From an uncultured Candidatus Saccharibacteria bacterium (GTDB taxonomy: Bacteria > Patescibacteriota > Minisyncoccia > 2-02-FULL-40-12 > GWA2-44-9), in NCBI GenBank assembly GCA_964479835.1, contig CAYZRE010000002.1:24987-88986 (forward strand): a stretch of 64,000 nt of DNA, given 5' to 3'. A program made the position numbers and the translations under genes. Under the pieces are notes generated by a model. The model ran no database searches. It saw only the letters and a program-made list of their open reading frames with translations, and had not been told where the DNA came from. This document shows positions 7,519 to 60,736 of this stretch, piece by piece (positions within the stretch are counted from its first letter, which is position 1; each line of letters begins with the position of its first letter).

Positions 7519-8199
7519 ATGACAGTAATGGTGTCGTACCAAGAATGGACGACGCGATACATGGATGAACTGCACCAAGCAGGTGCGACGAGAGAAGATG
7601 CAGCGGTCGCCGTGTTGCTCGGGTGGGACATCCTGCGGACACATCAGGCGTGCTACGGTGTCGAGAGTACGACGCCGGTGCATTTCTCAGCTATCCCCTC
7701 AACCATCACAACAAACCACATTGCACACGTCGCAGCCTGCTGCAGTGGTCCACGGTTCGGCGGCGACGAATTCTATGTCGTGTATGTACCGGGTCAGGCA
7801 AAGTATGTCGCCGATTGGCAGCATTTCACCAGCGGTCGGGTTTCCGCAGGCATATTTTTGGAAGGTATCGCGGTCCACGAAGTCCGCCACCGCGTACAGA
7901 ATCGAGAAACTGCAACACTACGCATGTTCGAGCGTGATAAACTAGCCGGCCAATGGCCCGACGAACACACTGCGGTTGTCGCAATGAACATGCACGAACA
8001 GTTCTTCGAAGATGAGCGACATGACCGGGCCGCCGGGATGTCTCCGGAGGATCTCGCCTGGCTCTACTCGGAGGAAGAATACGACGCAGCTGTTGTGGAG
8101 CGACTGTTCATCCACCGGCACGACACAGTCGTCACTGACGACCAGTTGGCCTCTTTCGTCAGAATGAATTGCCCGCGTATGCCGTCTCGCCGCTCGTAA
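7519..8199 (+). CDS. hypothetical protein with HExxH motif (putative zincin-like metallopeptidase fold)
   Basis: strong RBS AAGGAGGAG 6 nt upstream of the ATG; contains AVHEVRHR (HExxH); no further family assignment possible. Confidence 0.5.
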   Translation: MTVMVSYQEWTTRYMDELHQAGATREDAAVAVLLGWDILRTHQACYGVESTTPVHFSAIPSTITTNHIAHVAACCSGPRFGGDEFYVVYVPGQAKYVADWQHFTSGRVSAGIFLEGIAVHEVRHRVQNRETATLRMFERDKLAGQWPDEHTAVVAMNMHEQFFEDERHDRAAGMSPEDLAWLYSEEEYDAAVVERLFIHRHDTVVTDDQLASFVRMNCPRMPSRRS

Positions 8200-8243
8200 T
8201 CGGGCGGCGTTTTCTTTATGACTCGGTGGCGTATACTAAGGGT

Positions 8244-8786
8244 ATGGATTCGATTCTGGCACGCATACCGTCATGGCCCGGCACGGCAGTCTTGTCCGAG
8301 GCCCTACGGGACCCTAAAGGGCTCTTCGCGATGCTTGCGGTCGTTATGTTGGTGCTGTATGGGTTGTCAGTGGGGCGAACCAGAGCGCTAGTGTCGCTCT
8401 TGAGTATTTATGTCGCGTACATGCTTGCCGTGCTGTTCCCGTATTTGCCCTGGATAGCGGAGAAGCTACCGGAACAGTATCGGTCGCTGGGCGCCGTGGG
8501 ATTGTTTATTGTTTTATACGCCCTCACATTCATTATCCTGTCGCAATCGATGCTCAGAGGTCGCCTGACCCTGGGCGAAATATCGCTCTGGCAAGTTTTA
8601 GTTATTTCGGTTGTGCAAATAGGACTCCTGGCGAGCATATGTCTGTCACTGATTTCCGTGGAGAGAGGCGAGCAGCTTATCGGGCCGATGTACCCTTGGC
8701 TCGGAGGTTCTCGCACGCTATGGGCGTGGGCGGTTGCCTCGCTTCTCATTATGCCGTTTATGCGGTCCCGTAGCCGACGGGACTGA
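8244..8786 (+). CDS. hypothetical membrane protein
   Basis: about five hydrophobic helices. The ORF track starts at 8169, overlapping the upstream gene; the ATG at 8244 (MDSIL) with an AAGGGT RBS is preferred. Confidence 0.4.
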   Translation: MDSILARIPSWPGTAVLSEALRDPKGLFAMLAVVMLVLYGLSVGRTRALVSLLSIYVAYMLAVLFPYLPWIAEKLPEQYRSLGAVGLFIVLYALTFIILSQSMLRGRLTLGEISLWQVLVISVVQIGLLASICLSLISVERGEQLIGPMYPWLGGSRTLWAWAVASLLIMPFMRSRSRRD

Positions 8787-8929
8787 GCTCCGTTCCCTAC
8801 CGCCCCGATATCCCGACTCGGTATCGCTGTCTCCGTCTTCTGACGGAGCATCTCGTTCTCGCGCCGTCGCGCTCCGAAGCCCCTCGCTGGAATACCGGGG
8901 CGGTCTGTCGCTTGCAAGCAAGATTAATT

Positions 8930-8954
8930 AAACGGCTCATCAAATGAGCCGTTT
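8930..8954. repeat. REP-like palindrome copy 1 (AAACGGCTCA-tcaaa-TGAGCCGTTT)
   Basis: perfect 10-bp inverted repeat; one of at least six copies of the same palindrome in the window. Confidence 0.6.
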
Positions 8955-9130
8955 ATCCCGTCTGCGCGAACGCCTGCGCTTGACCGAGTTCAAGGCGCAA
9001 GCGAGGACCGAACCGAGCCGTACTTATGATACGGCGAGGGAGGACCACAGTGAGCAACGAAGAAATCGGGTAAGCCCGCAGGGTGGGAACGCCACTCATT
9101 CCATGGTGGCGCCCACGCAGGCGTTCGCTG

Positions 9131-9697
9131 CTATTTCGCGCGCTCTACATACTGACCGGTCTCAGTATTCACGACAATGCTATCGCCTTCGTTGACGAAC
9201 AGCGGGACATTAATGGATGCGCCGCAATCAAGTTTCACCTGCTTACTGCCGCCGGTCGCGGTGTCACCGCGGATGCCGGGGGGAGCTTCGACGACTTCGT
9301 AGGTCATTTTGATGGGCAGAGTGATGGTGATGACCTTGTCGTTCCATGACAGTGCCTCGAGCACGGTGTTGGGTTTGAGAAACTTAGCCTGGTCCCCGAT
9401 GAGTTCTTCGGTGAGGAGAAATCGTTTCGAGGGGTCTTTCGGGTCGGCGAACCAGAACTCATCGCGATGGTTGTAGAGAAATTTCACTTCACGGCGGGCA
9501 ACATCCGCTTCTTCGAACACATCGGACTGTGCGAGATTGCGCTCAAGAACTTTGCCGTTGAGCAGATTGCGCATTCGAGTTTGCACAACCGGGCGCCGTT
9601 GCTGCATTTTCAAATGGTGTGTTTCCAAGACCATGAACGGCTGGTCTTCGTAGATGAAATAGGTTTTCGGGTGTAAATCGTTGACTCCGAGAGACAT
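9131..9697 (-). CDS. efp: elongation factor P
   Basis: 188 aa, EF-P three-domain pattern (KMQQRRPVVQTRMRNL, C-terminal OB folds). Confidence 0.9.
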   Translation of the reverse strand: MSLGVNDLHPKTYFIYEDQPFMVLETHHLKMQQRRPVVQTRMRNLLNGKVLERNLAQSDVFEEADVARREVKFLYNHRDEFWFADPKDPSKRFLLTEELIGDQAKFLKPNTVLEALSWNDKVITITLPIKMTYEVVEAPPGIRGDTATGGSKQVKLDCGASINVPLFVNEGDSIVVNTETGQYVERAK

Positions 9698-16984: not shown

Positions 16985-17511
16985 AGGCACCTCTTGATAT
17001 AAGTATAGCATATAGATAGAGACAGGTCAATAATAGGGGAGCGGGGGGCGGTGTGGCACATTACGCCATACGGAAGCAGGCGACAGATGCGGACGGACCG
17101 TGTCGTTCCGCAATGAGTTCCGTCCGACTTACCGATGTTCCGTCCGATATCATCCCGCGCGTAAAACGCGAAGGAACCGTAGCTCTATTTTGACCATCCG
17201 GGGGACTTCTCAAAAATACAATCTGCGTATTCGGATGAAATGTTTACGTGACCGATGGCACGACAGAAAGGGAGGTAGTGGGGGTGTATATAATAGAGAG
17301 AATAATCACATTATTGGCCCCGGGTCTTATAGGCGTTTTTTGGGCATTAACAGGGGAGTCGTGCATGGTATAAGGACGCATAATCTACATTGGGCGACAT
17401 GATATCAAACCGGCCGGGGCACTCCCCTTGGCCGTTTTCATCATGTACGCCCAATGTGGCTATGTTGTGCAACGCGCTGCATCGCACAACATAGCCGAAC
17501 GATGCATCATT

Positions 17512-36926: not shown

Positions 36927-37274
36927 CTAGTTCTCGAGCGCGTCGATTTTCGCGGCGAGAATAAAATCGTTTTTACTCAAGCCGTTGATTGCGTGAGTCG
37001 TAAGCGTCACCTCTAAAAATCCCCAGCCGAAGCGGATATCGGGGTGGTGACCTTCAGCCTCGGCTAGCGCGCCGATGGCATTGACCCGCTTGAGAGCTTC
37101 TGCAAAATTCTTGAATTTCCACTTCTTGAAGATGTGGTCTCCGTCGACAACCTTCCAGCCGGAAATCTCCTTCAAGTATTCAGTAATCTCATCAGGCGTA
37201 GCCTTCGGCGTCTGGCCGTTGCACGCCTCACATGTGTTCTTCGCGAGTTCACTCATTAATTTGAATTGTATCAC
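36927..37274 (-). CDS. pterin-4a-carbinolamine dehydratase (PCD/DCoH)
   Basis: EGHHPDI motif and PCD-like length; apparent GTG start. Confidence 0.8.
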   Translation of the reverse strand: MIQFKLMSELAKNTCEACNGQTPKATPDEITEYLKEISGWKVVDGDHIFKKWKFKNFAEALKRVNAIGALAEAEGHHPDIRFGWGFLEVTLTTHAINGLSKNDFILAAKIDALEN

Positions 37275-37305
37275 AAACTCCGGCTTCGACCCCGACGAGG
37301 TCCGA

Positions 37306-37423
37306 GCGCGTAGCGGCCATACCGTTCAGCAGACGGCTTCGGAGGCCGACGGGCCGAGAACGCAGAAGCCCCGCCAGCAAGGCGGGGACTTCGTGTCTGT
37401 CGAATGGTATGGCCGCTACGCGC
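37306..37423. repeat. structured ~120-nt intergenic element, copy A (candidate ncRNA or regulatory RNA)
   Basis: 18-bp terminal helix GCGCGTAGCGGCCATACC/GGTATGGCCGCTACGCGC, inner 5-bp CAGAC/GTCTG, 11-bp hairpin GAAGCCCCGCC-agcaa-GGCGGGG(a)CTTC, cUUCGg-containing arm; a near-identical copy lies at 40308-40428. Confidence 0.5.
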
Positions 37424-37434
37424 GACCCCCATGA

Positions 37435-37692
37435 CTAGGAGAGGTGCTTCGAGACGAGCTTGGTCATCTCAAACATATTGACGACCGCTTTGCCACCAAA
37501 GACGGCCTTCAAGTTGGCGTCCGCATTGATGTTGCGCTTGTTCGCCGGGTCCTGAAGATTGTTCTTCTTGATGTAGACCCACAGTTTCTTGACGACCTCC
37601 GAGCGGGGCATAGGACCCGCACCAACTACTTCAGCTAACTCCGGGCTGACCTGCATCGGCTTCATAAACGCTGAATTGGCTTGTTGTGCCAT
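37435..37692 (-). CDS. SWIB/MDM2-domain protein
   Basis: 85 aa; pattern ...LKAVFGG...VNMFEMTKLVSKHL typical of SWIB domains. Confidence 0.7.
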   Translation of the reverse strand: MAQQANSAFMKPMQVSPELAEVVGAGPMPRSEVVKKLWVYIKKNNLQDPANKRNINADANLKAVFGGKAVVNMFEMTKLVSKHLS

Positions 37693-37768
37693 GGTTGTTT
37701 ATTAGTTGTTACCGTTCCTTACAAGTATACCCTGAAATTCACACAAAGCGCAAATAGAGAGAAAGGTC

Positions 37769-38029
37769 CTATTTCTTCTTATAGATGACGCCACGGCCCG
37801 CAGAGCCAACCTGAACAATCTTGCCCTCCTTCTCCAGCTCGTCCAGATACCGCGTAGCGGTGGCATCGGATACCCCCAACGCCGTCTGCACCTGGTCGTT
37901 GAACACCTCAGTTCTGCCGTCAAACAGCGCCATCACCCGCTTGCGCGGTGGGACGCTCCCCGCCCCCGCACGCATGCCCGCCCAATACCCCGCCCCGAAA
38001 CCGACGAGTAAAAATATGAACCATGTCAT
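37769..38029 (-). CDS. small membrane-anchored protein with C-terminal winged-helix-like segment
   Basis: N-terminal TM helix; C-terminal ATRYLDELEKEGKIVQVGSAGRGVIY resembles a wHTH; preceded by GGAGGGGAGAGTAG. Confidence 0.45.
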   Translation of the reverse strand: MTWFIFLLVGFGAGYWAGMRAGAGSVPPRKRVMALFDGRTEVFNDQVQTALGVSDATATRYLDELEKEGKIVQVGSAGRGVIYKKK

Positions 38030-38058
38030 GCCTCCATGCTACTCTCCCCTCCTTAAAA

Positions 38059-38089
38059 CACAAACGGCTCATTTAATGAGCCGTTTGTG
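38059..38089. repeat. REP-like palindrome copy 2 (CACAAACGGCTCA-tttaa-TGAGCCGTTTGTG)
   Basis: 13-bp perfect inverted repeat between convergently terminated minus-strand genes. Confidence 0.6.
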
Positions 38090-38110
38090 CCATATACAAC
38101 TACTTCGTAC

Positions 38111-38806
38111 TTACTGGAGAACGCCGATGTAGAAGGCGTTATTCAGAAGGCTAATCGAGTGGCCACTCTGAGCGTTAAAGGCAGTGGTGCCGTTGACGCC
38201 GCAGAGCAGTGCCAAACCCGCTGTACCTCCCGGGTAATTGACATAGCCCGTCACATTGTAGACATTGCCGCTGATAACGGTCCAGCAATTGCCTAATGTG
38301 TTATGCGTAGCAACAGTTGCCATCGTATAACCGACCGGCGTGGCTGTCGGAGTCGGCGTAGGGGTTACCGCAGCAAGTTGGTTTGTCTTACATCTGGTAA
38401 TCGCGCTGTCGTAGGCGGTTTGAGCCGCATCGGACGCGATACGCTGGATGTTCATGGCGACAGTGATGGCAGTGCGATAATTCGCATTTGCCGTATCAAT
38501 CTGCGCCAAGTTACCGTTAGCGGCAGTGATGGCATTCTTCCGAACCTGCTTGGCGTTCTTCTTTGCAGTGTTAAGGACATCCTTAGACGCTTTCTCTGCG
38601 GTGTTGAGCGCCGTCTGGGCATCTTTCCGGCAAGCCCTGTACACGCTACTTGCGTTTATGGACTTTCCGTTGTTTTCCTTCTGCTCTGACTTCTGCTCAT
38701 CGTTTTTACCCTTGTTATCTTTGCCGTTATCGGCCAATGCCGTTGCGGCAAGTGATACTGCTACGAGACCCACGAGTCCTCCCAACGCGTACTTTTTTAT
38801 GTTCAT
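38111..38806 (-). CDS. secreted protein with C-terminal cytochrome b5-like domain (heme-ligand His replaced)
   Basis: signal peptide (MNIKKYALGGLVGLVAVSLAATALA), Lys/Asn-rich helical region, C-terminal HNTLGNCWTVISGNVYNVTGYVNYPGG...GHS pattern of the cyt-b5 fold with Y in place of H in the HPGG motif. The ORF track extends to 39013; the ATG at 38806 is preferred. Confidence 0.55.
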   Translation of the reverse strand: MNIKKYALGGLVGLVAVSLAATALADNGKDNKGKNDEQKSEQKENNGKSINASSVYRACRKDAQTALNTAEKASKDVLNTAKKNAKQVRKNAITAANGNLAQIDTANANYRTAITVAMNIQRIASDAAQTAYDSAITRCKTNQLAAVTPTPTPTATPVGYTMATVATHNTLGNCWTVISGNVYNVTGYVNYPGGTAGLALLCGVNGTTAFNAQSGHSISLLNNAFYIGVLQ

Positions 38807-38906
38807 ACGGATATAGTTAGAGTTATGGTTACATGAGGTAAGACGGGGCCCAAAGCAAACTCTTACAGCACAAAAACAGCCGGTCCTTAGGGGAACGGCT
38901 GGGGGG

Positions 38907-39530
38907 TCAGGCGCGTGGTATCGGGTTGTTGGGCGCTGCGAAGAAGAGCTCGCGGTGCTCGGTGAGGCGCTTGAGCGCCCGCTCAAACTGGGGGTGAAGC
39001 TCTGCGTACTCATCGGGGGTCACGAAGACCATGTAGCCCGCCTGAAGCGCTCCGTGCATCTTAACGAATACGCTACCGTGCACCGCAACTTGTTGTCCTT
39101 GGCGGCGAGCAGCCTGCAATTCTTGCCGCGAATGCGCCCACTCCTCGCGTATGGCCTCCAATCCGGCGCCCACATCGATGTCCCGGTTGAGAACACTGGG
39201 AATCGGCCACGAGGCGTGCGCCGCTATCGTGAGCCCTAACGCGTTGTCACAGATAAGCAAGTTCTCAATGAGCTCGTGATAGCTCTCATCGACGAAGACA
39301 AACTTGACCTCCTTGGTAGTGCACAGGTACAGCAGCTTGGTTTCTGCCGCCGCGACAGCCTCGATGGCCCTGCGGGCCGCAGGAGCGTTCCATGTGGCGC
39401 ACAACCTGCTCATCAGAACGGTCTTGATGCGCGTACGCGCAACCGGGCCATACCACTTGCGGGTGCCTTCCGCGCGCATGACTTCTTCCGCGATGATGCG
39501 ATCTACCTCCGCTTCAGGATATTCCCGCAT
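38907..39530 (-). CDS. hypothetical protein
   Basis: 207 aa; RBS GGAGGAGGTGAGAG before the ATG; own terminator downstream; no family recognised. Confidence 0.45.
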   Translation of the reverse strand: MREYPEAEVDRIIAEEVMRAEGTRKWYGPVARTRIKTVLMSRLCATWNAPAARRAIEAVAAAETKLLYLCTTKEVKFVFVDESYHELIENLLICDNALGLTIAAHASWPIPSVLNRDIDVGAGLEAIREEWAHSRQELQAARRQGQQVAVHGSVFVKMHGALQAGYMVFVTPDEYAELHPQFERALKRLTEHRELFFAAPNNPIPRA

Positions 39531-39579
39531 CTCTCACCTCCTCCGTTGGTATAGCAAGTAAACGCGAGCGTCGCAAACG

Positions 39580-39610
39580 AAAAAAAGACCGAGGGGTGGG
39601 TTCCTCGGTC
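39580..39610 (-). terminator. intrinsic terminator (GACCGAGG/CCTCGGTC + T7)
   Basis: 8-bp stem followed by T7 on the minus strand, downstream of the gene ending at 39624. Confidence 0.55.
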
Positions 39611-39623
39611 GAGGTCGATACGG

Positions 39624-40220
39624 TTACTGCAGGGGTGCGGCCGCCAAATCATGCATGAGGCGGAGCTCGCTCATCTGAATGTCGTACTCGGTGGTAAACC
39701 GCTCCATCAGACGGTCGCCCAGTATGACCCTCAGGAGTTGCTTGAGATGCCAGCACAACCCATCGAATAGCCACCGTTGAGCCTCGAAAATTCCGATAGC
39801 GGACAGGCGCTCAATTTCATCGGACTTCTCTTCGCAGAAGGCGCGCAAGGCGCAGACGATTGCCTCATCGCGCTCGCGGTTATGTGCCTCATGCGGCAAG
39901 ATGGTCCGGAAGATGTTCACCACGCGAGCGATAGTGGCGGTGTCTTCAAAGAGCGCACGAACCTTGGAAGCTTCTTCCGGCATCACGATATGCGGCAGTT
40001 CGGTCGGTCCCAGCGTGTAGGGAATCACCCTGCCCCAGAGCCGAATCACATCCAAGAGCAACCTCCCCTGGTATGGGTCCAGCTCCGGCATCAGTTTTGT
40101 GAACACATTCAGATTGCCAACGAGCCAGCCTGCTAGGCACGCCCGCTTCCCGGGAGCACCGCCGTCCTGACTTGTCATCAGTACCTGAAAGAATTCGAGC
40201 TGCCTTAATCCTCCGCCCAT
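39624..40220 (-). CDS. hypothetical protein
   Basis: 198 aa, helical, no family recognised. Confidence 0.45.
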   Translation of the reverse strand: MGGGLRQLEFFQVLMTSQDGGAPGKRACLAGWLVGNLNVFTKLMPELDPYQGRLLLDVIRLWGRVIPYTLGPTELPHIVMPEEASKVRALFEDTATIARVVNIFRTILPHEAHNRERDEAIVCALRAFCEEKSDEIERLSAIGIFEAQRWLFDGLCWHLKQLLRVILGDRLMERFTTEYDIQMSELRLMHDLAAAPLQ

Positions 40221-40275
40221 AGCGCCTCCTCATGTAACGACACCCCCAACTCTACTCTCCCGCATCTCTCTCCGC

Positions 40276-40299
40276 AAACGGCTCATTATGTGAGCCGTT
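40276..40299. repeat. REP-like palindrome copy 3 (AAACGGCTCA-ttatg-TGAGCCGTT)
   Basis: same palindrome family, followed by CTTTTG. Confidence 0.55.
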
Positions 40300-40307
40300 C
40301 TTTTGAG

Positions 40308-40428
40308 GAGCGGCGCGGCCATGCCATTCAGCAGACCGCTTCGGAGGACGACTGGCCCGAGAACGCAGAAGCCCCGCCAGCAAGGCGGGGCTTCGTGTCT
40401 GTCCAGTGGTATGGCCGCGGAGCTCGAC
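40308..40428. repeat. structured ~120-nt intergenic element, copy B
   Basis: about 85 percent identical to copy A, with the terminal helix preserved through a wobble and a compensatory pair (CGCGGCCATGCC/GGTATGGCCGCG) and the identical inner 11-bp hairpin GAAGCCCCGCC-agcaa-GGCGGGGCTTC. Confidence 0.5.
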
Positions 40429-40436
40429 ACGAACAG

Positions 40437-40604
40437 CTAGCCGAGAAAGGCGAATAACTTATAGATTAGGAATGCCGGCCACACGAGAGCCTTGAGGAAA
40501 CCCACAGCGACCGACTCAAACCCAATCGATTGCTGGTAGAAATACACCGCTGCCCCGATAAATCCGAGAAAGTACACGCCCCCTCCGGTAGCTTCATTTC
40601 TCAT
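40437..40604 (-). CDS. tiny two-TM membrane protein
   Basis: 55 aa from the ATG at 40604 (MRNEATGGGVYFLGF...). The ORF track's longer version overlaps the upstream gene. Confidence 0.3.
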   Translation of the reverse strand: MRNEATGGGVYFLGFIGAAVYFYQQSIGFESVAVGFLKALVWPAFLIYKLFAFLG

Positions 40605-40614
40605 GTTCGTATGA

Positions 40615-40824
40615 TTAATTAATAAACCAGAATGGGTTGCCGAATCGGAGCTTGTTGAGCAAATCAAATGTCGGCGACTGGTCGGTGGCCGCTGACGGGT
40701 CACCATTGCCCCACGCAACGAGAATGTTTGCCTCCCCTTTTTCGTAGTACCCCATCACCGCCGATACATACGCGGCGCCCAACAGTACCAGTAGCCATTT
40801 CAACTTCCTTGATTTGCGCCTCAT
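40615..40824 (-). CDS. small single-TM membrane protein
   Basis: 69 aa, preceded by GCGGGGGAGTAGA about 12 nt upstream of the ATG. Confidence 0.35.
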   Translation of the reverse strand: MRRKSRKLKWLLVLLGAAYVSAVMGYYEKGEANILVAWGNGDPSAATDQSPTFDLLNKLRFGNPFWFIN

Positions 40825-40857
40825 GTCCCCATTCTACTCCCCCGCCTCCCTCCCCGC

Positions 40858-40881
40858 AAACGGCTCACCGATGAGCCGTTT
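40858..40881. repeat. REP-like palindrome copy 4 (AAACGGCTCA-ccga-TGAGCCGTTT) plus adjacent half-copy at 40889-40900
   Basis: 10-bp perfect inverted repeat, with an extra ATGAGCCGTTTA half immediately after. Confidence 0.6.
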
Positions 40882-41370: not shown

Positions 41371-41910
41371 TCAGGGCTGGAATAATTCTTCGGGCATCAG
41401 ACGCACCTCACGCACCCCCGAAAATTGCTTCGCCGTGTTTTCGATCTGCGCCCGTAAGATGCTCACAAAACATGAACCGCCACCCGTGCGATTGTCGGGG
41501 TCATTGAATGTCAGCGTCAGAACACCGCCAGTCAGCGATGCCGCAGTAAGGGTGACGCGCTTAAGTGGAAGTTCGGAGACCATGCCCTGGGCGCTTTCGG
41601 CTGATGTGGGTTTGGTTATCAGGAGAAGCCGAATCGTGTCCTGGATAGGGGTATTCGTGAACGGAATTTCACGGGTAGCGGGCATCGAACCGCCGGTACT
41701 GCACATGATATTTCCGGACGCATCCTTATCGAGCTCGGGATTGTAGAAGAAAAGCTTCACGCTCCGCATCGCAACCGGAGATGACGACGGTACCACACTC
41801 GGAATCAGTGCACTCGGAAGCCCGCTATAATATCCCAAAGCGATTGCGACGGCAATCGCAATCACAACAAGTACTCCCGCCATCTTTATTTGCTTTGAGA
41901 TTCGCTTCAT
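41371..41910 (-). CDS. GerMN-domain lipoprotein-like protein
   Basis: N-terminal TM/signal, LFFYNPEL...LTLTFNDP pattern typical of GerMN domains. Confidence 0.55.
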   Translation of the reverse strand: MKRISKQIKMAGVLVVIAIAVAIALGYYSGLPSALIPSVVPSSSPVAMRSVKLFFYNPELDKDASGNIMCSTGGSMPATREIPFTNTPIQDTIRLLLITKPTSAESAQGMVSELPLKRVTLTAASLTGGVLTLTFNDPDNRTGGGSCFVSILRAQIENTAKQFSGVREVRLMPEELFQP

Positions 41911-42008
41911 ACCCCAATGTTACTCTCCCACCTTCCTCCCCGCAAACGGCTTCCGCAAAAGAAAAACCGGCAGGCGGAGGCGCCTGCCGGTCCAAACGTT
42001 GCGAAATT

Positions 42009-42326
42009 CTACTTCTGCTTGTCGATGGTCCAGATGTAGCCGGCGGATGTCAGGTCGATGACCTTCCGGGCGCGCGACCGACCGTCGTCGTACTCGGCGA
42101 AGAGCGAGTGCTCTCCCACCTCGTATCTGACGTTGCACTCGCGTTGCGGGGTGGCACGGCAGGTCTCCTCGTCGCCGTCCACCGAGAACACGAGCGGGTC
42201 GGCCGTGTTGTTGATGAACCTGATCAGCCCCGTGCTCTGGGCCTGCACCGGCGGCGGCTGTACCGCGAACCCCGCCATCAGCGCCAGCAGACCAATCGAC
42301 AACACCATCAAGACTGCCTTTCTCAT
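42009..42326 (-). CDS. small secreted hypothetical protein
   Basis: signal peptide MRKAVLMVLSIGLLALMAGFAVQPPPVQA; RBS AAAGGAGG. Confidence 0.5.
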   Translation of the reverse strand: MRKAVLMVLSIGLLALMAGFAVQPPPVQAQSTGLIRFINNTADPLVFSVDGDEETCRATPQRECNVRYEVGEHSLFAEYDDGRSRARKVIDLTSAGYIWTIDKQK

Positions 42327-42409
42327 ACGACCTCCTTTGTTACTGCGAGTTCACACTATAACACACTAATTCCCTCCCCGCAAACCGACCATTTTCCAAA
42401 AAGCAGCGG

Positions 42410-42961
42410 CTATTTCTGATTGATAGCTAGAATTTCGTTAACGCGCTTGAGAACTAGATCGCCATCTAACATCTCGCGTCCTTTAATGCGAAGTAATGGA
42501 AGGTTAGCCGACTCAAGAATACGCTGAACCTCAATATCGCGTTGGATTCTATCTGGCCGCTCATGTGAAGGGTCATCTAGCTCAATCGCTAGTACCGTGT
42601 GGAGACTATTTTTCTCACACAATACGTAATCAACTGACTTTTCGTCGATATGCCGAAACGCACCAAACCAGCTCTGGCCCTTAATCTTGTGCTCAACAAT
42701 CGATGGCAAGTGGATTTGCGGGAATACCAAAAAACGGTCGCCGATTATCCGCGTAAGAAGGCGAAAGAACTCCTGCTCTGTATGCGTCATAACAGAAGCT
42801 TTTCTCCCGTAGAGATATTTATACGGCTGTGCCTTTTGTGTCTTTCTACGAAATAGGCCTACCAGCACCACGAGCACGATAAGGCCAAGAATAATCGGCC
42901 AAAACGGCTTCACGAACGTGAAGAACGCATTCACTATTTGCCAAAAATCGAGATTGATCAT
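42410..42961 (-). CDS. DUF2726-like (NERD / PD-(D/E)XK-related) membrane-anchored protein
   Basis: N-terminal TM, then YVLCEKNSLHTVLAIELDDPSH core typical of DUF2726; start overlaps the RM gene stop (ATGA); AT-rich codon usage. Confidence 0.55.
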   Translation of the reverse strand: MINLDFWQIVNAFFTFVKPFWPIILGLIVLVVLVGLFRRKTQKAQPYKYLYGRKASVMTHTEQEFFRLLTRIIGDRFLVFPQIHLPSIVEHKIKGQSWFGAFRHIDEKSVDYVLCEKNSLHTVLAIELDDPSHERPDRIQRDIEVQRILESANLPLLRIKGREMLDGDLVLKRVNEILAINQK

Positions 42962-45900
42962 TTTATTTTGTCGATTTCTTCCATGATACGGTCGGTTTCG
43001 GTGAGCGCAACAATAATTTTTTGATAATGTGAGATATCATCAAATGACAATTTCATACCACGTCGATCTTTCAACCACTTCTGAGCTGGCAAGTAGCTAC
43101 CCATAACATACCCAAACGCTTCTTCGGATATATTTTGAAAACTTTGCGTTTCATTAATAAATACTTCACCCTTCCTGAATATAGGGAACTTCGGACCAAC
43201 GATGTTACTGCCGAGTGCTGGAAACTTGGATGTGTAGTTACCGATCTCGGGATGTTCTAGTAGATGATAGAGGCGCAGGTCTCTGCCTTTTTGGACGAGC
43301 TTCAGAAATGTCTCCTTATTTGACGGGTACGGAATACGCGGGAAGTCCGTCTTCAGGAATTCTTGGTATTTTTTTCGATAATTTAGTGAGTATAGCGTCG
43401 CATAGATGTAGTCAAGGATATCTTCTGACGATATGGCACCGACAACATTTTCTATTTTGCTCACTATTTCTTTCCTTAGATTAGAGGTTCGTGTATTATC
43501 GTCAGAGTAAAGATATAGCGGGAAGACGTAGCCAGCCTCCTTAGTTCGATTCGTTAGGAGGCACATGTCAATTAGACCCCTTCCAATGAAGGCGTGGTTA
43601 AATTCATTGACTGCCAGCTGGCGAGGAACGAGAAGTGCGATGTTGTCTCGTTCGAGAAGATGCTTCATAATCGCATACCGGGGACGAGCAATGAAACCCT
43701 TATTTTCGTGGGTATAGTATATCCATCTAACATCGAATGGACGGTAAGATATTTGCCTCAAATGAGATTCGGAGAAATTTCTTTCTACATCGTTCTTTGC
43801 GTTCGGCAGCTGCCAGCTACTAGTATCTTTCGGAATGCCGTACTTCTGGCGCAATGCGACAACATCCAAACTCTTAAAATCTAGAACACGCTGTTGGAGC
43901 ATTTCTTTTCTTTGATCGATGGCCAACTCATCCCTGAACGTTGCAATTCCAACACTGGACTCTAAGAATAATTCATCGAGACTGAATCCTCGTCTGTATT
44001 CTTCTCTGCCCTCCATGTTCTTATCCACAAAGAAATACATCTGGTCATCGAGTGACACCTCTTGCCAGTTTGGTTTATAAGAATCTAGGGCAGTAAATTT
44101 CGAACGACGAGAGCCGAATAAGTCGTCATGATATACTCTGGCCGGTTGATTGGCCTTCTTGTCTCCTGTTTTCACGGCAATCAAGATTGCTACTCCCTGT
44201 TGAATATCAAAGACGTTTTCATCTTTGTTGCCATCGGGAGAAAGTTCCTCCTTTTTTAGATTGCCATGGAGATCGAGTACATAGATTGAATCGAAAGTTT
44301 TTGTCAGATGCCATCGCATACCACGAAACGTTGGGTTATCAATGTAGCCGTGAGCTGTGATCATGGCTACGATGCCCGTACCAGTTTTCTCAATAAAACT
44401 CTCTGCTAAACGGATAAACTTAACATAATCATCGTTCAGCCATTTTGAATTCCGCTCTTGTAGCTTCATTCTCCCGCCAGGCTCTACTTTATACACATCA
44501 TGCCCCGTATACTGCTTATTTTGAGACTCACCTTTATATGGCGGATTGCCAATAACGACCATAACCGGCAACTCTTCTTTTACTCGTGAAGCACCAATAG
44601 ACTCTTCGGTAAGCGAACGCATCAGTCCGAATTCAAGCTGTGGTTGCACGGCGCCCGCGGGTTCCAAAGAATTTGTAAGATACACACCGATTCTGTCGTT
44701 TGGTTCGGCACCTGTTTCAGTCAGAACCATGGATAACTTGAGGTGTGCGACAATATAACTTGCGACGAGAAGCTCGAATCCGTGCATTCGTGGAAGTAAG
44801 TGTTCATTTACATAACTTGGCCATTGACCTTTTTGACTCTCAAATGACTCGTATATCTTGTGGATAGTCTCATTCAAGAATGTTCCGGTACCAACAGCGG
44901 GGTCCAAAATCTGGACACGGTGAATCTGTTCCTTAACTTTTTTAAACTGGCCTGTTTTATTAGTCTCCTGAATAGAAATCTCATGCTCAACCTTAGAAGT
45001 GTCTGCCAGTCCTTTTGAGAGACCAAAATCGCGACGAAGAATCTCGTCCACCGATCGAACGATGAAACGTACAATAGGCGGGCGAGTATAAAATACGCCA
45101 CGATCTAACTTCTGCCCTTTATCGTATTCTCCCAAAAAGTCTTCATAGAAATGAACAACGGGATCAAGTGCTTCGGGGTCCTTACCCCACAAACCTACTT
45201 GCCTGAAGCGATCCTCCATAATTCCCTTGACATCAGCTGCGGTAAATATTAAAGATAAATCGGAAACGATATAATCAAGTCTTGAGTCAAACTCTGGGCC
45301 AGAAATATGATTAAAGAACTGCCTTAAAAAGGGGTTAGAGCGTGGCACAAGGCCTTGTGCTTCCTGTCTTGAAAAATTCCCTGGCGTTTTATCGTAGAAG
45401 CGAGCTACAAATAGGCCATATACTAATGTTTGGGCATACATATCCGCAAATTGCTCGATCGTTAGGTCGTGTATAAGAAGACGCTTAAAAACGTCGAATT
45501 GTTCAAGAAGCGATCGACTTTTCTCTCCACCTTCTTTGCTATAGATGACAATATTTTCTCGAAGACGACGCCCTCGACCACCCATGATTCGAGACAATTT
45601 TTCTGCAGAGGTTATCGTTTGAGCTCCGAGTTCAAGAAACGCTGAAAGTTCGCGGACTAGTAACTCATATGCCTCCGCGTGAAATACCAATCCCTCTCCA
45701 TGACGAGATGCGATAATGATTTTTTCTCCATAGGGTTCGCCGTCTCGGAAAAATCGAAATTCAATGTAGTTCGTCAATATAAGCTTCGGATATCCTAGAT
45801 ACCTCTCGAGTTGTTCCGATGTCTGGACTTTATCCAAGTTTACAGCGAGGTCCTTCGTTTCAATGTAGGCAAGAGGAACTGCCCCTTTTTTAACAATAAA

Positions 45901-46071
45901 GTCGGGCGCTCCAAACTGAGAACGCTTTGGCTCATTAATTATCTGGCAGTTCTCGCATGTAGTCCCCAGAAACTCTTCAAAGGGTGCGCGATAAGAATGC
46001 TCACCAGCCTCGCCAGTTGCAAACTTGCCGCCGATTTTTCCGAGATACTCCGCGACTTTATGTGCAGTCAC
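42958..46071 (-). CDS. Type IIG restriction-modification enzyme (fused PD-ExK endonuclease, gamma-class N6-adenine MTase and TRD; MmeI-like)
   Basis: 1037 aa; N-terminal PD-(D/E)XK (GAPDFIV...AYIETKDL), MTase motif I ILDPAVGTGTFL and motif IV VIGNPPYKG in gamma order, long C-terminal TRD; apparent GTG start; AT-rich. Confidence 0.75.
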   Translation of the reverse strand: MTAHKVAEYLGKIGGKFATGEAGEHSYRAPFEEFLGTTCENCQIINEPKRSQFGAPDFIVKKGAVPLAYIETKDLAVNLDKVQTSEQLERYLGYPKLILTNYIEFRFFRDGEPYGEKIIIASRHGEGLVFHAEAYELLVRELSAFLELGAQTITSAEKLSRIMGGRGRRLRENIVIYSKEGGEKSRSLLEQFDVFKRLLIHDLTIEQFADMYAQTLVYGLFVARFYDKTPGNFSRQEAQGLVPRSNPFLRQFFNHISGPEFDSRLDYIVSDLSLIFTAADVKGIMEDRFRQVGLWGKDPEALDPVVHFYEDFLGEYDKGQKLDRGVFYTRPPIVRFIVRSVDEILRRDFGLSKGLADTSKVEHEISIQETNKTGQFKKVKEQIHRVQILDPAVGTGTFLNETIHKIYESFESQKGQWPSYVNEHLLPRMHGFELLVASYIVAHLKLSMVLTETGAEPNDRIGVYLTNSLEPAGAVQPQLEFGLMRSLTEESIGASRVKEELPVMVVIGNPPYKGESQNKQYTGHDVYKVEPGGRMKLQERNSKWLNDDYVKFIRLAESFIEKTGTGIVAMITAHGYIDNPTFRGMRWHLTKTFDSIYVLDLHGNLKKEELSPDGNKDENVFDIQQGVAILIAVKTGDKKANQPARVYHDDLFGSRRSKFTALDSYKPNWQEVSLDDQMYFFVDKNMEGREEYRRGFSLDELFLESSVGIATFRDELAIDQRKEMLQQRVLDFKSLDVVALRQKYGIPKDTSSWQLPNAKNDVERNFSESHLRQISYRPFDVRWIYYTHENKGFIARPRYAIMKHLLERDNIALLVPRQLAVNEFNHAFIGRGLIDMCLLTNRTKEAGYVFPLYLYSDDNTRTSNLRKEIVSKIENVVGAISSEDILDYIYATLYSLNYRKKYQEFLKTDFPRIPYPSNKETFLKLVQKGRDLRLYHLLEHPEIGNYTSKFPALGSNIVGPKFPIFRKGEVFINETQSFQNISEEAFGYVMGSYLPAQKWLKDRRGMKLSFDDISHYQKIIVALTETDRIMEEIDKIK

Positions 46072-46076
46072 AATTC

Positions 46077-46110
46077 TTCAAATCTACCAAAAAACCGGCC
46101 TTGTGGCCAG
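46077..46110. repeat. ~34-nt repeated upstream element, copy 1 (minus-strand reading CTGGCCACAAGGCCGGTTTTTTGGTAGATTTGAA)
   Basis: near-identical to copy 2 at 46601-46632; lies immediately 5' of the RM start codon. Confidence 0.5.
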
Positions 46111-46119
46111 TTCTCGGTG

Positions 46120-46143
46120 AACGGCTCACCGAATGAGCCGTTT
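46120..46143. repeat. REP-like palindrome copy 5 (AACGGCTCA-ccgaa-TGAGCCGTT)
   Basis: same family as the other copies, between the RM gene start and the upstream gene's stop. Confidence 0.55.
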
Positions 46144-46156
46144 GATCCCGTGGTAT

Positions 46157-46591
46157 TCAGACGAGTTGCGGAATTTTCAGTAGCTTGCGTATCTCATTGA
46201 GGTCATCATCATTTCTAAGGGCATTATTGCCCGGACCTAGGCCGTTCGAGAGTCTGATGAGCCGCCGCGCAGCGTCCGCAACATTTCTGTCGTCGTTCTT
46301 TGTACGAAAAACCAGTTGTTTTCTCGATGCTTCTAAATCGCATGAATTTCTACGAAGATCGTCCGAGCATTTTTGATAGCGCTCCGGCCAAAAAGAATTT
46401 TCACTAGGCGGAATAGGGTTTGTTATTACATTCGCGTAATATTTCAATTCGTTATCGATTTTCCCAATCACTCCCTTATATTCTTGCAGGGGCACTAGAA
46501 CGAACCTTTGGATTGTTTCGCCTATCAGAAAAATAACCACGCCAGATATGACGGTCTGAAAAACTGTACTTCCGAGAAGGGTCGCGATCAT
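46157..46591 (-). CDS. hypothetical protein with N-terminal TM helix
   Basis: The ORF track starts at TTG 46612 inside the repeated element; the ATG at 46591 (MIATLLGS...) is preferred; no family recognised. Confidence 0.4.
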   Translation of the reverse strand: MIATLLGSTVFQTVISGVVIFLIGETIQRFVLVPLQEYKGVIGKIDNELKYYANVITNPIPPSENSFWPERYQKCSDDLRRNSCDLEASRKQLVFRTKNDDRNVADAARRLIRLSNGLGPGNNALRNDDDLNEIRKLLKIPQLV

Positions 46592-46600
46592 GTCAGGCGA

Positions 46601-46632
46601 CAAATCTAACAAAAAACCGGCCCCGTGGCCAG
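46601..46632. repeat. ~34-nt repeated upstream element, copy 2
   Basis: minus-strand reading CTGGCCACGGGGCCGGTTTTTTGTTAGATTTG, about 5 mismatches to copy 1. Confidence 0.5.
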
Positions 46633-46670
46633 TCGTGGAGTAGGGTCGGTAATGTAGTAGGGCAGCTCGT

Positions 46671-47327
46671 TTAAACTAGCGTTGCCTGGGAACCACCCAA
46701 TAGGACTTGATTAATGAGATCGTGATACAGCCTACTAGCTAGTGTAGTATTGAAGTCGGGATCATTGGAGGCTGTTAGCAATAGCAGTTTTTCTCTATAT
46801 AGGCCCTGTGACTTTAAAAAGGCGATTTCCGCAGAGTCTCCTAAAATCATTGATTCTATAACTTTGAAGGCAGGGTCCAGAAAAAACTCGGCCACTTTAT
46901 CCTCCAGCTGTTCTTGCTTAGTTTGCTTATTGAGATGGACGAATTGAAAATTCTTTTTGTATCCGATAAAACATTTCCCACCAAGATTGATAATTTCGGG
47001 GCCAAGCTTTTCGCCAGCATCACAGGCAAGAGCGTGAACAAATTTCCCCTGCATTATTTTGGCATTTTCTCCAACCCGAATCAGTATTTCTCTGTTATAT
47101 CCACACAGATGATCTGGGCCCCCGTGTCCGTTAAAAAAAACAATCTGGGGATCATTCTCTGATATAGCGGTCTCAATATTTACTCGAGTGACCGAAGGGC
47201 CCGATAATTCTATAACTACTGTCTCGGGCTGTTTTTTAGCCAGCTCAACCACTCGGTCACACCAGGCACCTATATACTCAGTGGGCCGATCGTGAGCCGG
47301 GTTTGTAAAAACCAGTATGCGGCTCAC
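46671..47327 (-). CDS. caspase-like (C14-type His/Cys dyad) fold protein, candidate peptidase
   Basis: 218 aa; hydrophobic first strand RILVFTNP, then FFNGHGG (metacaspase YSGHG-like) and HALACDAGEK (D-x-C-x-x-G-like Cys motif) in the order expected for a caspase/metacaspase dyad; GTG start. Confidence 0.45.
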   Translation of the reverse strand: MSRILVFTNPAHDRPTEYIGAWCDRVVELAKKQPETVVIELSGPSVTRVNIETAISENDPQIVFFNGHGGPDHLCGYNREILIRVGENAKIMQGKFVHALACDAGEKLGPEIINLGGKCFIGYKKNFQFVHLNKQTKQEQLEDKVAEFFLDPAFKVIESMILGDSAEIAFLKSQGLYREKLLLLTASNDPDFNTTLASRLYHDLINQVLLGGSQATLV

Positions 47328-47581
47328 TGGGTGACAAGATTAGGGTTAGCAATCTTAGCAACAATGCCAGTTCTTAGGGCGCGTAGAAATTCCATTTCTG
47401 TCTCGATATAGTCCAAGCCAATAGTAGACTCATTGGTAACATGTTGAATCATCTCATCTCGAGAGATATTGGCCGCCTGGTCTCCGCTGGAAAAGTGAAG
47501 ATTTCGAGACAAAATTTCTAGTCGAGCTAAGATTGTTTCTTTTACTACCGGATCGGCTGATTTTTGCACAACTTTTTTCAT
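47324..47581 (-). CDS. hypothetical small protein
   Basis: 85 aa, start overlaps upstream stop, stop overlaps downstream start (operon coupling). Confidence 0.4.
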   Translation of the reverse strand: MKKVVQKSADPVVKETILARLEILSRNLHFSSGDQAANISRDEMIQHVTNESTIGLDYIETEMEFLRALRTGIVAKIANPNLVTQ

Positions 47582-47584
47582 ATT

Positions 47585-47782
47585 CTAGATTAGCTGTAAG
47601 CGCTCAAGCTCGCTAAGGATTTTTTCAGAAAGTTCTGTTTTTGCCTTCACTTCAATAAATGCAACATCCCAAGTAATGGGTTTTTGTATTCCGTCTAACT
47701 CAATCACCAAAATAATCTCATTTCGGAGACTTAATGGAATGTTGGAGTAAACTCTTAGAAACCGTTCCCTGAGATCATCCAT
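47585..47782 (-). CDS. hypothetical small protein (first gene of island operon)
   Basis: 65 aa; sits 26 nt downstream of a perfect promoter. Confidence 0.4.
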   Translation of the reverse strand: MDDLRERFLRVYSNIPLSLRNEIILVIELDGIQKPITWDVAFIEVKAKTELSEKILSELERLQLI

Positions 47783-47808
47783 AAATAGTACTTTGTAATT
47801 GGGGAAGG

Positions 47809-47837
47809 ATTATACGCTATTTACTAGGGGGAATCAA
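47809..47837 (-). promoter_or_regulatory. sigma70-type promoter TTGATT-N17-TATAAT driving the island operon
   Basis: read on the minus strand; -10 TATAAT about 27 nt upstream of the ATG at 47782. Confidence 0.5.
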
Positions 47838-48068
47838 GATGGGATGAGCCTCTATATACTAAAATTTACCATTTTTGTGCCAGCAGGGACAAGGGGACAA
47901 CTAAGATGCGCGTGGCCATTTGCGAGCGCACCACCCGGGCCCTGGCATGCTCGCTTGCTGTACCAAAGCCGAGCGAACAGCGATGGCGACGTTACGCACC
48001 GGGAGCGGACAGGGCTTGGGTGGTAAGCGAGAACAGAAACCCCGCCGATTGGCGGGGTTTCTTCTGCG

Positions 48069-48611
48069 TTACCGTTTCGCCCATCTTGGACCCTTCCTCG
48101 CTTTTTTGAGACCGGGTTTCTTTCTTTCGACTTTTCTCGGATCGCGGGTGAGGAAACCTGCCTTCTTCAATTTCTTACGGAAATTCGCATCGAACAGCTC
48201 GAGACAGCGCGAGATGCCGTGGCGAACAGCGTCGGCCTGACCCGAGATACCGCCTCCGTTAACATGCGCGGTGACCTTGAAGCGCTGAAGCGATTTCAGG
48301 CGGCGGAGCGGTTGCTCGACGCGCAGAATGAGGTTCTTATCCAAAAAGTATGCGGCATAGTCCTTATCGTTGACGGTCATGAGCGCGGCATCCTCGGTGA
48401 GCTTGTCGCCCGACTTGCGGGTCATCAGGCGCACGCGCGCAACGGCTGTTTTGCGGCGGCCGACCGCTTCGAAATACTTCTCCTTGGCTCCCTCGGGAAG
48501 TTCTTCCAGTGTCATCGGGCCCAGCTCAATGTCATCATCGTCGCGAACAGTGTCCACGAAGGTGGGAGTGGCGGGCTTTACGGTGATTTCTTCGGGTTGG
48601 GTGGTTGCCAT
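48069..48611 (-). CDS. rpsI: 30S ribosomal protein S9 with N-terminal extension
   Basis: C-terminal GLKKARKGPRWAKR and RRKTAVARVRL core; about 45-aa acidic N-terminal extension. Confidence 0.85.
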   Translation of the reverse strand: MATTQPEEITVKPATPTFVDTVRDDDDIELGPMTLEELPEGAKEKYFEAVGRRKTAVARVRLMTRKSGDKLTEDAALMTVNDKDYAAYFLDKNLILRVEQPLRRLKSLQRFKVTAHVNGGGISGQADAVRHGISRCLELFDANFRKKLKKAGFLTRDPRKVERKKPGLKKARKGPRWAKR

Positions 48612-60466: not shown

Positions 60467-60538
60467 GGGACCTATGGTGAAATGGTATCACAACACTCTG
60501 TGGCAGTGTGGTCACGGGTTCGATCCCCGTTAGGTCCC
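60467..60538 (+). tRNA. tRNA-His (anticodon GTG)
   Basis: manual cloverleaf: G-1, acceptor GGACCTA/TAGGTCC, D-arm GTGA-aatggta-TCAC, anticodon arm ACACT-ctGTGgc-AGTGT, T-arm ACGGG-TTCGATC-CCCGT, discriminator C; CCA not encoded; TGTTATAAT extended -10 about 25 nt upstream. Confidence 0.8.
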
Positions 60539-60593
60539 CAAATACTAAAGCACCCCCGCCTGCCGAGGGTGCTTTAGTATCCTGGAGATGCTG

Positions 60594-60608
60594 AACGGGG
60601 ATCGAACC
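60594..60608 (-). repeat. inverted partial copy of tRNA-His T-arm (GGTTCGATCCCCGTT, 15/15)
   Basis: exact 15-nt match to tRNA-His positions 60516-60530 in opposite orientation; flanks do not fold into a complete tRNA. Confidence 0.5.
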
Positions 60609-60711: not shown

Positions 60712-60736
60712 AAACGGCTCACCGAATGAGCCGTTT
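60712..60736. repeat. REP-like palindrome copy 6 (AAACGGCTCA-ccgaa-TGAGCCGTTT)
   Basis: identical core to copies 4 and 5. Confidence 0.6.

Follow-up and report, generated by a model that had tools for sequence, protein, structure and literature searches.

Two copies of a non-coding palindrome lie 3 kb apart, with five genes between them, in the 64,000-nt stretch of DNA analysed here (the window). Copy A spans 37306-37423 and copy B 40308-40425, 118 nt each, and both are read on the plus strand, the better-folding strand, which we term element-sense. Copy A stands beside the stop codon (TAG, 37435-37437, minus strand) of a SWIB-domain gene (37435-37692), and copy B beside that (TAG, 40437-40439, minus strand) of a small membrane-protein ORF (40437-40718). 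On its other side copy A is followed by the promoter (TGATACAAT, 8 nt ahead of the ATG) of a pterin dehydratase gene; this promoter is conserved in the relative L056. Copy B has a palindromic terminator-like hairpin (AAACGGCTCA...TGAGCCGTT, 40274-40301) 6 nt away on the side opposite the stop codon; we call this hairpin family D1.

The window is part of a Patescibacteria chromosome encoding DnaK, PriA, a short AlaRS, CysRS, EF-P, ribosomal proteins and RpoA. A phage origin was rejected: blastn against phages was empty, and the DnaK, PriA, aminoacyl-tRNA synthetase and ribosomal protein genes mark the window as chromosomal. Homologues of the SWIB and DnaK proteins are likewise from Patescibacteria, and the nearest DnaK proteins (91-93% identical) come from groundwater metagenomes, followed at ~84% by proteins labelled Candidatus Yanofskybacteria. 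Cumulative GC skew (1-64000) climbs to about 30-32 kb and then drops. The turn coincides with a shift from mixed and plus-strand genes to mostly minus-strand ones, and could mark a replication terminus or origin region or reflect gene orientation alone. Separately, an island of low GC at about 42000-48000 (0.44-0.47 versus about 0.55) carries a 1037-aa type IIG-like restriction-modification ORF (42958-46071) and a DUF2726 protein (42410-42961), and looks horizontally acquired. A 33-nt repeat occurs at 46079-46111 and 46601-46633.

Fold and stability of copies A and B

Both copies are present where the initial annotation had put them, save that it carried copy B on to 40428; the helix of copy B ends at 40425. 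Their identity, put there at about 85 percent, is 87% with flanks and 92% over the element. RNA folding recovered one and the same three-way junction in each, as had been claimed. In copy A, on the plus strand, P1 is a terminal helix of 22 bp (37306-37327 with 37402-37423), followed by a conserved unpaired A (37328) opposite C 37401 and by P1b (37329-37334 with 37395-37400). P2 (37336-37340 with 37358-37363) bears a sub-hairpin (37344-37347 and 37352-37355, loop GACG), and P3 pairs 37365-37375 with 37381-37392 across the loop AGCAA, with a bulged A at 37388. Copy B shares this architecture.

The helices first described are recovered: the terminal helix, the CAGAC/GUCUG helix, the CUUCGG-containing arm and the GC hairpin. 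The CUUCGG itself is predicted not to be a tetraloop because its UUC pairs with GAA. A perfect 11-bp hairpin, ascribed to both copies, is found in B only, P3 of copy A being interrupted by the bulged A (GGCGGGGACUUC). The P2 internal loop, GGA/GA, could accommodate a G bulge and tandem G.A pairs. In the terminal helix, A and B differ by one double change, C-G to A-U, by three one-sided A/G changes that toggle A-U and G.U pairs, and by two or three positions that are unpaired in B. P1 of copy B has G.U at alignment columns 10/98 and U.G at 14/94.

These structures are exceptionally stable. Copy A has a minimum free energy (MFE) of -90.4 kcal/mol as RNA (z -9.4) and copy B one of -76.4 kcal/mol (z -6.5), and for each copy none of 200 shuffles folds as well. 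No inverted repeat in the window is longer than those of A and B, whose arms measure 29 nt and are separated by 60 nt. When the window was scanned in 120-nt sliding segments (mean MFE -32.6, sd 8), A (-79) and B (-67) fell within the four strongest of the 11 minima listed. The second strongest 120-nt segment in the window (-75.7 kcal/mol) belongs to a separate locus at 17380-17510 (minus strand), a terminator (GAGCACGCG...CGCGTGCTC T7) followed by two long hairpins, for which we found no Rfam match and no convincing ORF.

The initial annotation could not assign the element to a known RNA family, and neither could we. At gathering scores, the only Rfam match in the whole window is tRNA. At E<=10, region 37200-40600 gave nothing relevant: the best matches below threshold, rnk_pseudo (32 bits, gathering score 55) and precursors of plant microRNAs, were due to chance. 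Rfam searches of the relatives' elements and loci returned zero matches. A likeness to 5S rRNA (GCGGCCAUACC) was judged a coincidence, having no model match, and Y RNA, SRP RNA, 6S RNA and ribozymes had no matches either. We also discarded a type I toxin-antitoxin system, as a small hydrophobic peptide occurs only at the ORF upstream of B. The ORFs that run across the element are spurious and have no homologues; element translations, searched against 1.84 billion proteins for spurious ORFs over related repeats, gave 0 matches. Elsewhere in the window, tRNA-His (60468-60539) is followed by a 17-bp hairpin (60542-60580) and then by a perfect 15-nt inverted copy of its T-arm region (60594-60608), around which the minus strand resembles the 3' half of a tRNA; this may be an integration-site remnant or a decayed tRNA.

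A diverged third copy and the conservation of the fold

Lenient blastn first revealed a partial minus-strand match near 8.8 kb. A covariance model built from A and B only (R1) matched the same place (8792-8910, E=4.7e-8), and sequence search, folding and covariance models together define copy C as a diverged element of 106 nt at 8799-8904 on the minus strand. A second model built from all three copies (R2) gave copy C 92.5 bits and matched only A, B and C in the window. The initial annotation had called for further homologous copies and a conserved structure; copy C is such a copy, and it carries compensatory changes.

P1 of copy C is a 16-bp helix of wholly different sequence (ACCGCCCCGGUAUUCC / GGGAUAUCGGGGCGGU) in which pairing is kept. 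The P1 arms, 16 nt long in C as against 22 nt in A and B, form terminal inverted repeats around a short non-coding core. In copy C that core follows A and B: GCUUCGGAG, a 4-bp hairpin with loop GACG, and CGAGAACG. Across the three loci 27 nt are held in common, differing only in the stem of the sub-hairpin, which covaries from GGCC/GGCC in A and B to GCGC/GCGC in C, and in a loop 1 nt longer in B. P3 of copy C reads CUCCGUC-AGAA-GACGGAG, with three pairs of the GC hairpin changed on both sides relative to A and B. Stems vary while loops and junctions are conserved, including an A/C mismatch beside a G.T at the joint of P1 and P1b.

In a registered three-way alignment (MAFFT kept the register once two unpaired junction bases had been taken out of C), 96% of pair cells are paired and 16 of the 42 pairs are changed on both sides. 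Sliding the partner by 1-3 columns left 0-3 such pairs, and none of 500 shuffles reached the observed values. Because these 16 pairs changed on both sides with pairing kept, it is the fold that is conserved and not sequence alone. This comparison shows that selection has kept the shape, on the basis of two independent lineages (A with B, and C) and not of a population statistic.

The three copies constitute a lineage-specific family of 106-118-nt non-coding palindromic repeats on a Patescibacteria chromosome. The P1 arm sequence has no other occurrence in the window, and models R1 and R2 found no further full copies over about 160 kb from relatives. A GTDB scan with the P1 arm pattern gave 20 single matches and a JGI metagenome scan with GAGAACGCAGAAG...GTGTCTG gave 21, all of them chance, and both patterns would miss copy C. 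The core pattern GCTTCGGAGNNNGACN{5,6}GAGAACG had 0 matches on viral contigs, and a plasmid search yielded no match to the element. Our literature search found no description of such repeats in candidate-phyla-radiation genomes.

Position past stop codons and relation to the rpsI terminator

P1 begins 11, 11 and 12 nt past a stop codon in copies A, B and C, a fixed spacing in this sample of three. The placement directly 3' of a minus-strand stop had been noted from the start for A and B, and the stops at 37435-37437 and 40437-40439 each lie 11 nt from the helix. Copy C follows the TGA (8784-8786, plus strand) of a conserved gene for a membrane protein of ~181 aa (ORF 8169-8786) and sits between convergent genes. 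Copy C is separated from EF-P (9131-9697, minus strand) by a second D1 hairpin (8928-8955), which stands 23 nt from the copy. The C-terminus of the 181-aa protein is identical in three relatives, and the SWIB stop and the next 11 nt are common to the window and relative L057, so the stop codons adjoining copies C and A are ancestral. At 11-12 nt past a stop codon, each copy should therefore be transcribed into the 3' end of that gene's mRNA. Since a conserved promoter follows copy A and a D1 hairpin follows B and C, we assign the element to the upstream gene's 3' untranslated region, outside the 5' leader of the next gene.

The element is absent from orthologous sites in relatives even where neighbouring proteins are 91-96% identical. 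At site A, L056 (SWIB 96% identical) has an unrelated 76-nt spacer followed by the same promoter, and L057 shares TAG and TCATG(A/G)GGTC and then carries a simple hairpin 11 nt past the same stop codon. At site C, the convergent genes of L054 and L055 abut with zero intergenic bases. L052 has at this EF-P locus a different, larger element 10 nt from the same stop, a 214-nt nested hairpin (L052 10472-10685) of -130 versus -109 kcal/mol by strand. The relatives of site B are too diverged to align (neighbouring protein 59% identical). A Logan contig, an independent assembly of the same organism, breaks off inside copy B, as happens at repeats.

Relatives carry other long-hairpin elements at gene 3' ends, patchily distributed between genomes. 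One of ~150 nt lies downstream of cysS in L055 (77-226) and L052 (about 230-390) and is absent from the window and L054; another, of 103 nt, lies between murB and aroA in L055 (12295-12397). A segment of ~110 nt downstream of EF-P is shared by the window (about 8960-9075) and L052 (10696-10804), at 73% over 111 nt, and is absent from L054 and L055.

Part of the element is homologous to the region downstream of rpsI (S9). In the window, this partial homologue (48013-48068, plus strand) reads GGCTTGGGTGG...CGAGAAC and then a hairpin, AGAAACCCCGCC-GATT-GGCGGGGTTTCT (48035-48062), 6 nt from the rpsI stop (48069-48071, minus strand); it is without the 3' arms of P1 or P1b. In gene direction the order is stop, 6 nt, hairpin and GUUCUCGCUU, and we take hairpin plus GUUCUCGCUU to be the rpsI terminator. 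The distant relative L059 (6418-6500) has the same arrangement downstream of rpsI. Its spacer aligns to copy A with a local score of 25 (shuffles 8.8 +/- 1.3, z 12.7), in one orientation only, across the P1 5' arm, P2 and P3; it has neither the sub-hairpin nor the 3' arms. The rpsI spacer of the window itself matches copy A more weakly (z about 5). Because the core aligns with the rpsI spacers of both the window and L059, the family is related to an old, conserved terminator region.

Apart from A and B, the rpsI terminator is the one place in the window with a CCCCGCC...GGCGGGG hairpin. P3 and the CGAGAAC tract (GUUCUCG in gene direction) are homologous to the rpsI intrinsic terminator and look like a copy of it, the full copies being this module with its ends joined in a long palindrome. 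In A, B and C, P3 is followed by a weak, eroded U tract (UGCGUUCUCG), and a consensus terminator scan made no call. The initial annotation had considered the element too elaborate for a simple terminator; that is a fair description, yet its GC hairpin and flank would themselves derive from one. Directly beyond the rpsI terminator stands another hairpin of about 105 nt (47917-48030, arms CACCACCCGGGCCCTG / CAGGGCTTGGGTGG), with MFE -59 on the plus and -50 on the minus strand.

Besides its hairpins beside C (8931-8953) and B (40277-40299), the D1 family has further sites in the window (38063-38085, 40859-40880, 46120-46142 and 60713-60735), in L054 (11223-11245) and in L057 (524-546). Its hairpins have a common stem (AACGGCTCA/TGAGCCGTT) and a 4-5-nt loop, and are usually flanked by A/T like a bidirectional terminator; the D1 9-mer occurs 14 times versus 0.57 expected. 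Such a common stem is reminiscent of REP elements, or of paired uptake sequences located in terminators. Upstream of three minus-strand genes lies a direct repeat of 57 nt (40227-40283, 40809-40865 and 41895-41951; 65-79% identity). On the minus strand it consists of the end of a D1-type hairpin, a G-rich stretch and TAGAAT/TAGAGT, with a start codon a few bases on, and it looks like a shared module of promoter and short leader.

Comparison with known repeats and competing explanations

We consider it close to an even call that the element is a non-autonomous, terminator-carrying repeat like SPRITE, ERIC or MITEs, transcribed into the 3' end of the upstream mRNA. A mobile structured repeat was one of the options offered initially, and it fits best, with a third copy and absence at relatives' sites. 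The nearest precedent is the pneumococcal SPRITE, a dispersed non-coding repeat of about 105 nt with a Rho-independent-terminator-like motif in its predicted fold and a bias to gene 3' ends, convergent pairs included (PMC3184786). Our elements are alike in length (106-118 nt), in their hairpin homologous to the rpsI terminator, in their place 11-12 nt past stops and in the position of copy C between convergent genes. They differ in having no sequence relation to SPRITE, in phylum (Patescibacteria against Firmicutes), in an outer helix of 16-22 bp that encloses the terminator hairpin and makes it an arm of a three-way junction, and in folding better on the strand antisense to the adjacent gene. 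The three copies known here are too few for a comparison of copy number.

Imperfect palindromes are also found among the ERIC/IRU and Correia (NEMIS) elements, which measure 100-170 nt and occupy intergenic regions that are transcribed; they have long terminal inverted repeats and very stable RNA stem-loops, and are non-coding and patchy in distribution. Our family shares with these and with MITEs the long terminal inverted repeats, a stable stem-loop, a lack of coding content and patchiness between related genomes; it differs in its interior, which consists of two local covarying hairpins and is not simply a palindrome continued. RNA of MITEs folds into long, stable stem-loops (PMC3184786). 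By definition, however, MITEs have target-site duplications, and their terminal repeats match those of an IS; neither was found here. The flanks are TC/TC (A), TC/CT (B) and CT/CT (C); no target-site duplication is consistent, and two-base matches in two of three copies are within chance. No transposase, recombinase, integrase or Y1 transposase was found among the roughly 39 window ORFs scanned. Because target-site duplication and parent transposase were not found, we do not file the element as a strict MITE. REP/BIME elements are GC-rich extragenic palindromes in 3' untranslated regions that can stabilize the upstream mRNA (PMC3184786), and in composition and location ours are alike. REP sequences differ in being about 35 nt long, clustered and served by RAYT transposases, whereas the element here is three times longer, branched and solitary; the D1 hairpins of the window are nearer to REP in size.

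The anatomy that we propose for this repeat is a P1 of 16-22 bp, a P1b of 6 bp, a purine-rich P2 with a possible G bulge, tandem G.A and 4-bp hairpin, and a GC-rich P3. Its copies occupy the slot that relatives either leave empty or fill with a plain terminator hairpin. In that position the unit most likely has two effects: it halts or insulates transcription at P3 and its tail, with the neighbouring D1 hairpin as a putative backup in B and C, and its very stable structure caps the mRNA 3' end. Its spread would have been that of a non-autonomous repeat, as with ERIC, MITEs or the SPRITE of pneumococci. Movement, past or present, and its mode are what we infer here, together with the role in termination or 3'-end protection. 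Against the repeat reading count the three full copies known, the failure to find a consistent target-site duplication, a transposase among the scanned ORFs or further members in the searches above, and the weak U tract after P3.

The strand asymmetry is an observation that a terminator-carrying repeat does not explain. In every copy the favoured strand (plus for A and B, minus for C) is antisense to the gene whose stop adjoins: -90.4 versus -80.9 kcal/mol for A, -76.4 versus -69.0 for B and -62.5 versus -50.4 for C by RNA folding. Helices on the favoured strand contain 8 G.U pairs versus 1 A.C (an A.C being a G.U on the opposite strand). B and C have G.U and U.G at the same two P1 positions among different neighbouring pairs, and tandem (sheared) G.A pairs in the invariant P2 loop are possible on this strand only. 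With DNA energy parameters the bias is kept at smaller size (-50.5 versus -46.1, -38.9 versus -37.4 and -30.3 versus -25.4 kcal/mol). Three other hairpin families of relatives likewise fold better antisense to the adjacent gene, by 3 to 21 kcal/mol. A purely mRNA-level role does not predict a better fold on the antisense strand, and the asymmetry keeps alive the rival readings of a small RNA and a single-stranded DNA site. The 8 G.U versus 1 A.C, the B and C wobbles, the purine-rich internal loop and the 8-12 kcal/mol in three of three copies would point to an element that acts on the strand antisense to the adjoining gene, either as a new class of structured RNA (convergent cis-antisense, or protein-binding with a conserved G-bulge/tandem-G.A arm) or as an attC-like single-stranded DNA site for a novel recombinase; we rate this improbable overall.

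Small structured RNAs of about 105-120 nt, transcribed on the element-sense strand convergently with the upstream gene, ending beside it and acting as cis antisense or by protein binding in trans, are an unlikely account. The 8-12 kcal/mol preference in all three copies, the excess of G.U over A.C, the P1 wobbles common to B and C and the invariant P2 loop with its strand-restricted sheared G.A pairs all speak for an RNA read from this strand, as do purine-rich unpaired positions and the pattern of variable stems with conserved loops and junctions. But sigma-70-like promoters are absent before A, B and C on the favoured strand, no U tract follows P1, and a terminator-like hairpin with a T tract lies only 6 nt upstream of copy B. 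Nor is the element conserved at orthologous sites beside proteins 91-96% identical, and it has no Rfam match. The upstream genes, for SWIB, the small membrane protein and the 181-aa membrane protein, share nothing obvious. The free-standing small non-coding RNA first suggested is therefore improbable, no promoter-like site having been found ahead of any copy on that strand.

Alternatively, nothing moved: ordinary terminator regions lengthened in place to form long palindromes, perhaps through template switching, and A and B arose through one duplication or gene conversion. We regard this as rather improbable. It would accord with a core homologous to the rpsI terminator region, where two distant lineages have 5' arm-like sequence without the 3' arm, with the failure to find a target-site duplication or transposase, and with the EF-P locus of L052, where a nested hairpin of another, larger kind stands 10 nt from the same stop. 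It sits poorly with three loci that share a near-identical 27-nt core and one architecture. The flanks of A and B, moreover, are unrelated right to the P1 edge, which therefore points to copying of a discrete unit.

Still less probable, and in our judgement a long shot, is a folded single-stranded DNA site like attC or the ends of IS200/IS605, its shape read by a recombinase encoded elsewhere. Sites of the attC type measure 57-141 nt (for example the ~120-nt Vibrio cholerae repeats), lie just after ORF stops, conserve structure over sequence and take their functional fold on the bottom strand. The elements here are alike in each respect: their length is within the attC range, structure is conserved while stem sequence is free, and directly past the stop of the upstream ORF it is that ORF's bottom strand that folds better. 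The strand preference persists with DNA energy parameters, and the conserved A/C mismatch next to a G.T marks the joint of P1 and P1b. They differ in that RYYYAAC/GTTRRRY core sites are absent at the helix bases, which read GCGCG...CGCGC, GAGC...GCTC and ACCGCC...GGCGGT; on this ground we rejected an integron attC. With DNA parameters the two strands differ little, the scanned ORFs yielded neither an integrase nor a Y1 transposase, and A and B, five genes and 3 kb apart, do not form an array of one ORF per site.

A riboswitch or 5' leader for the downstream minus-strand gene, as the initial annotation had also offered, would suit the three-way-junction shape and the position of A and B upstream of minus-strand genes, but it is barely credible given that promoter TGATACAAT (8 nt from the ATG and conserved in L056) comes after the element and so leaves it outside the 5' untranslated region, that a D1 terminator-like hairpin separates B from the next gene, that copy C faces a convergent gene, that a closing helix of 16-22 bp is too stable to switch, that no Rfam riboswitch matches and that the fold is better on the opposite strand.

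Almost nothing has been described of the non-coding content of candidate-phyla-radiation genomes, which are small and streamlined. If the reading as a terminator-carrying repeat is true, a palindrome family that copies a terminator and settles at a fixed 11-12 nt after the stop would illustrate the way in which these organisms acquire and replace 3'-end signals. In practical terms, the element disrupts short-read assemblies and generates spurious ORFs. Should the strand asymmetry instead reflect a function on the antisense strand, the family would represent a new structured RNA or a folded DNA site, of much wider interest.
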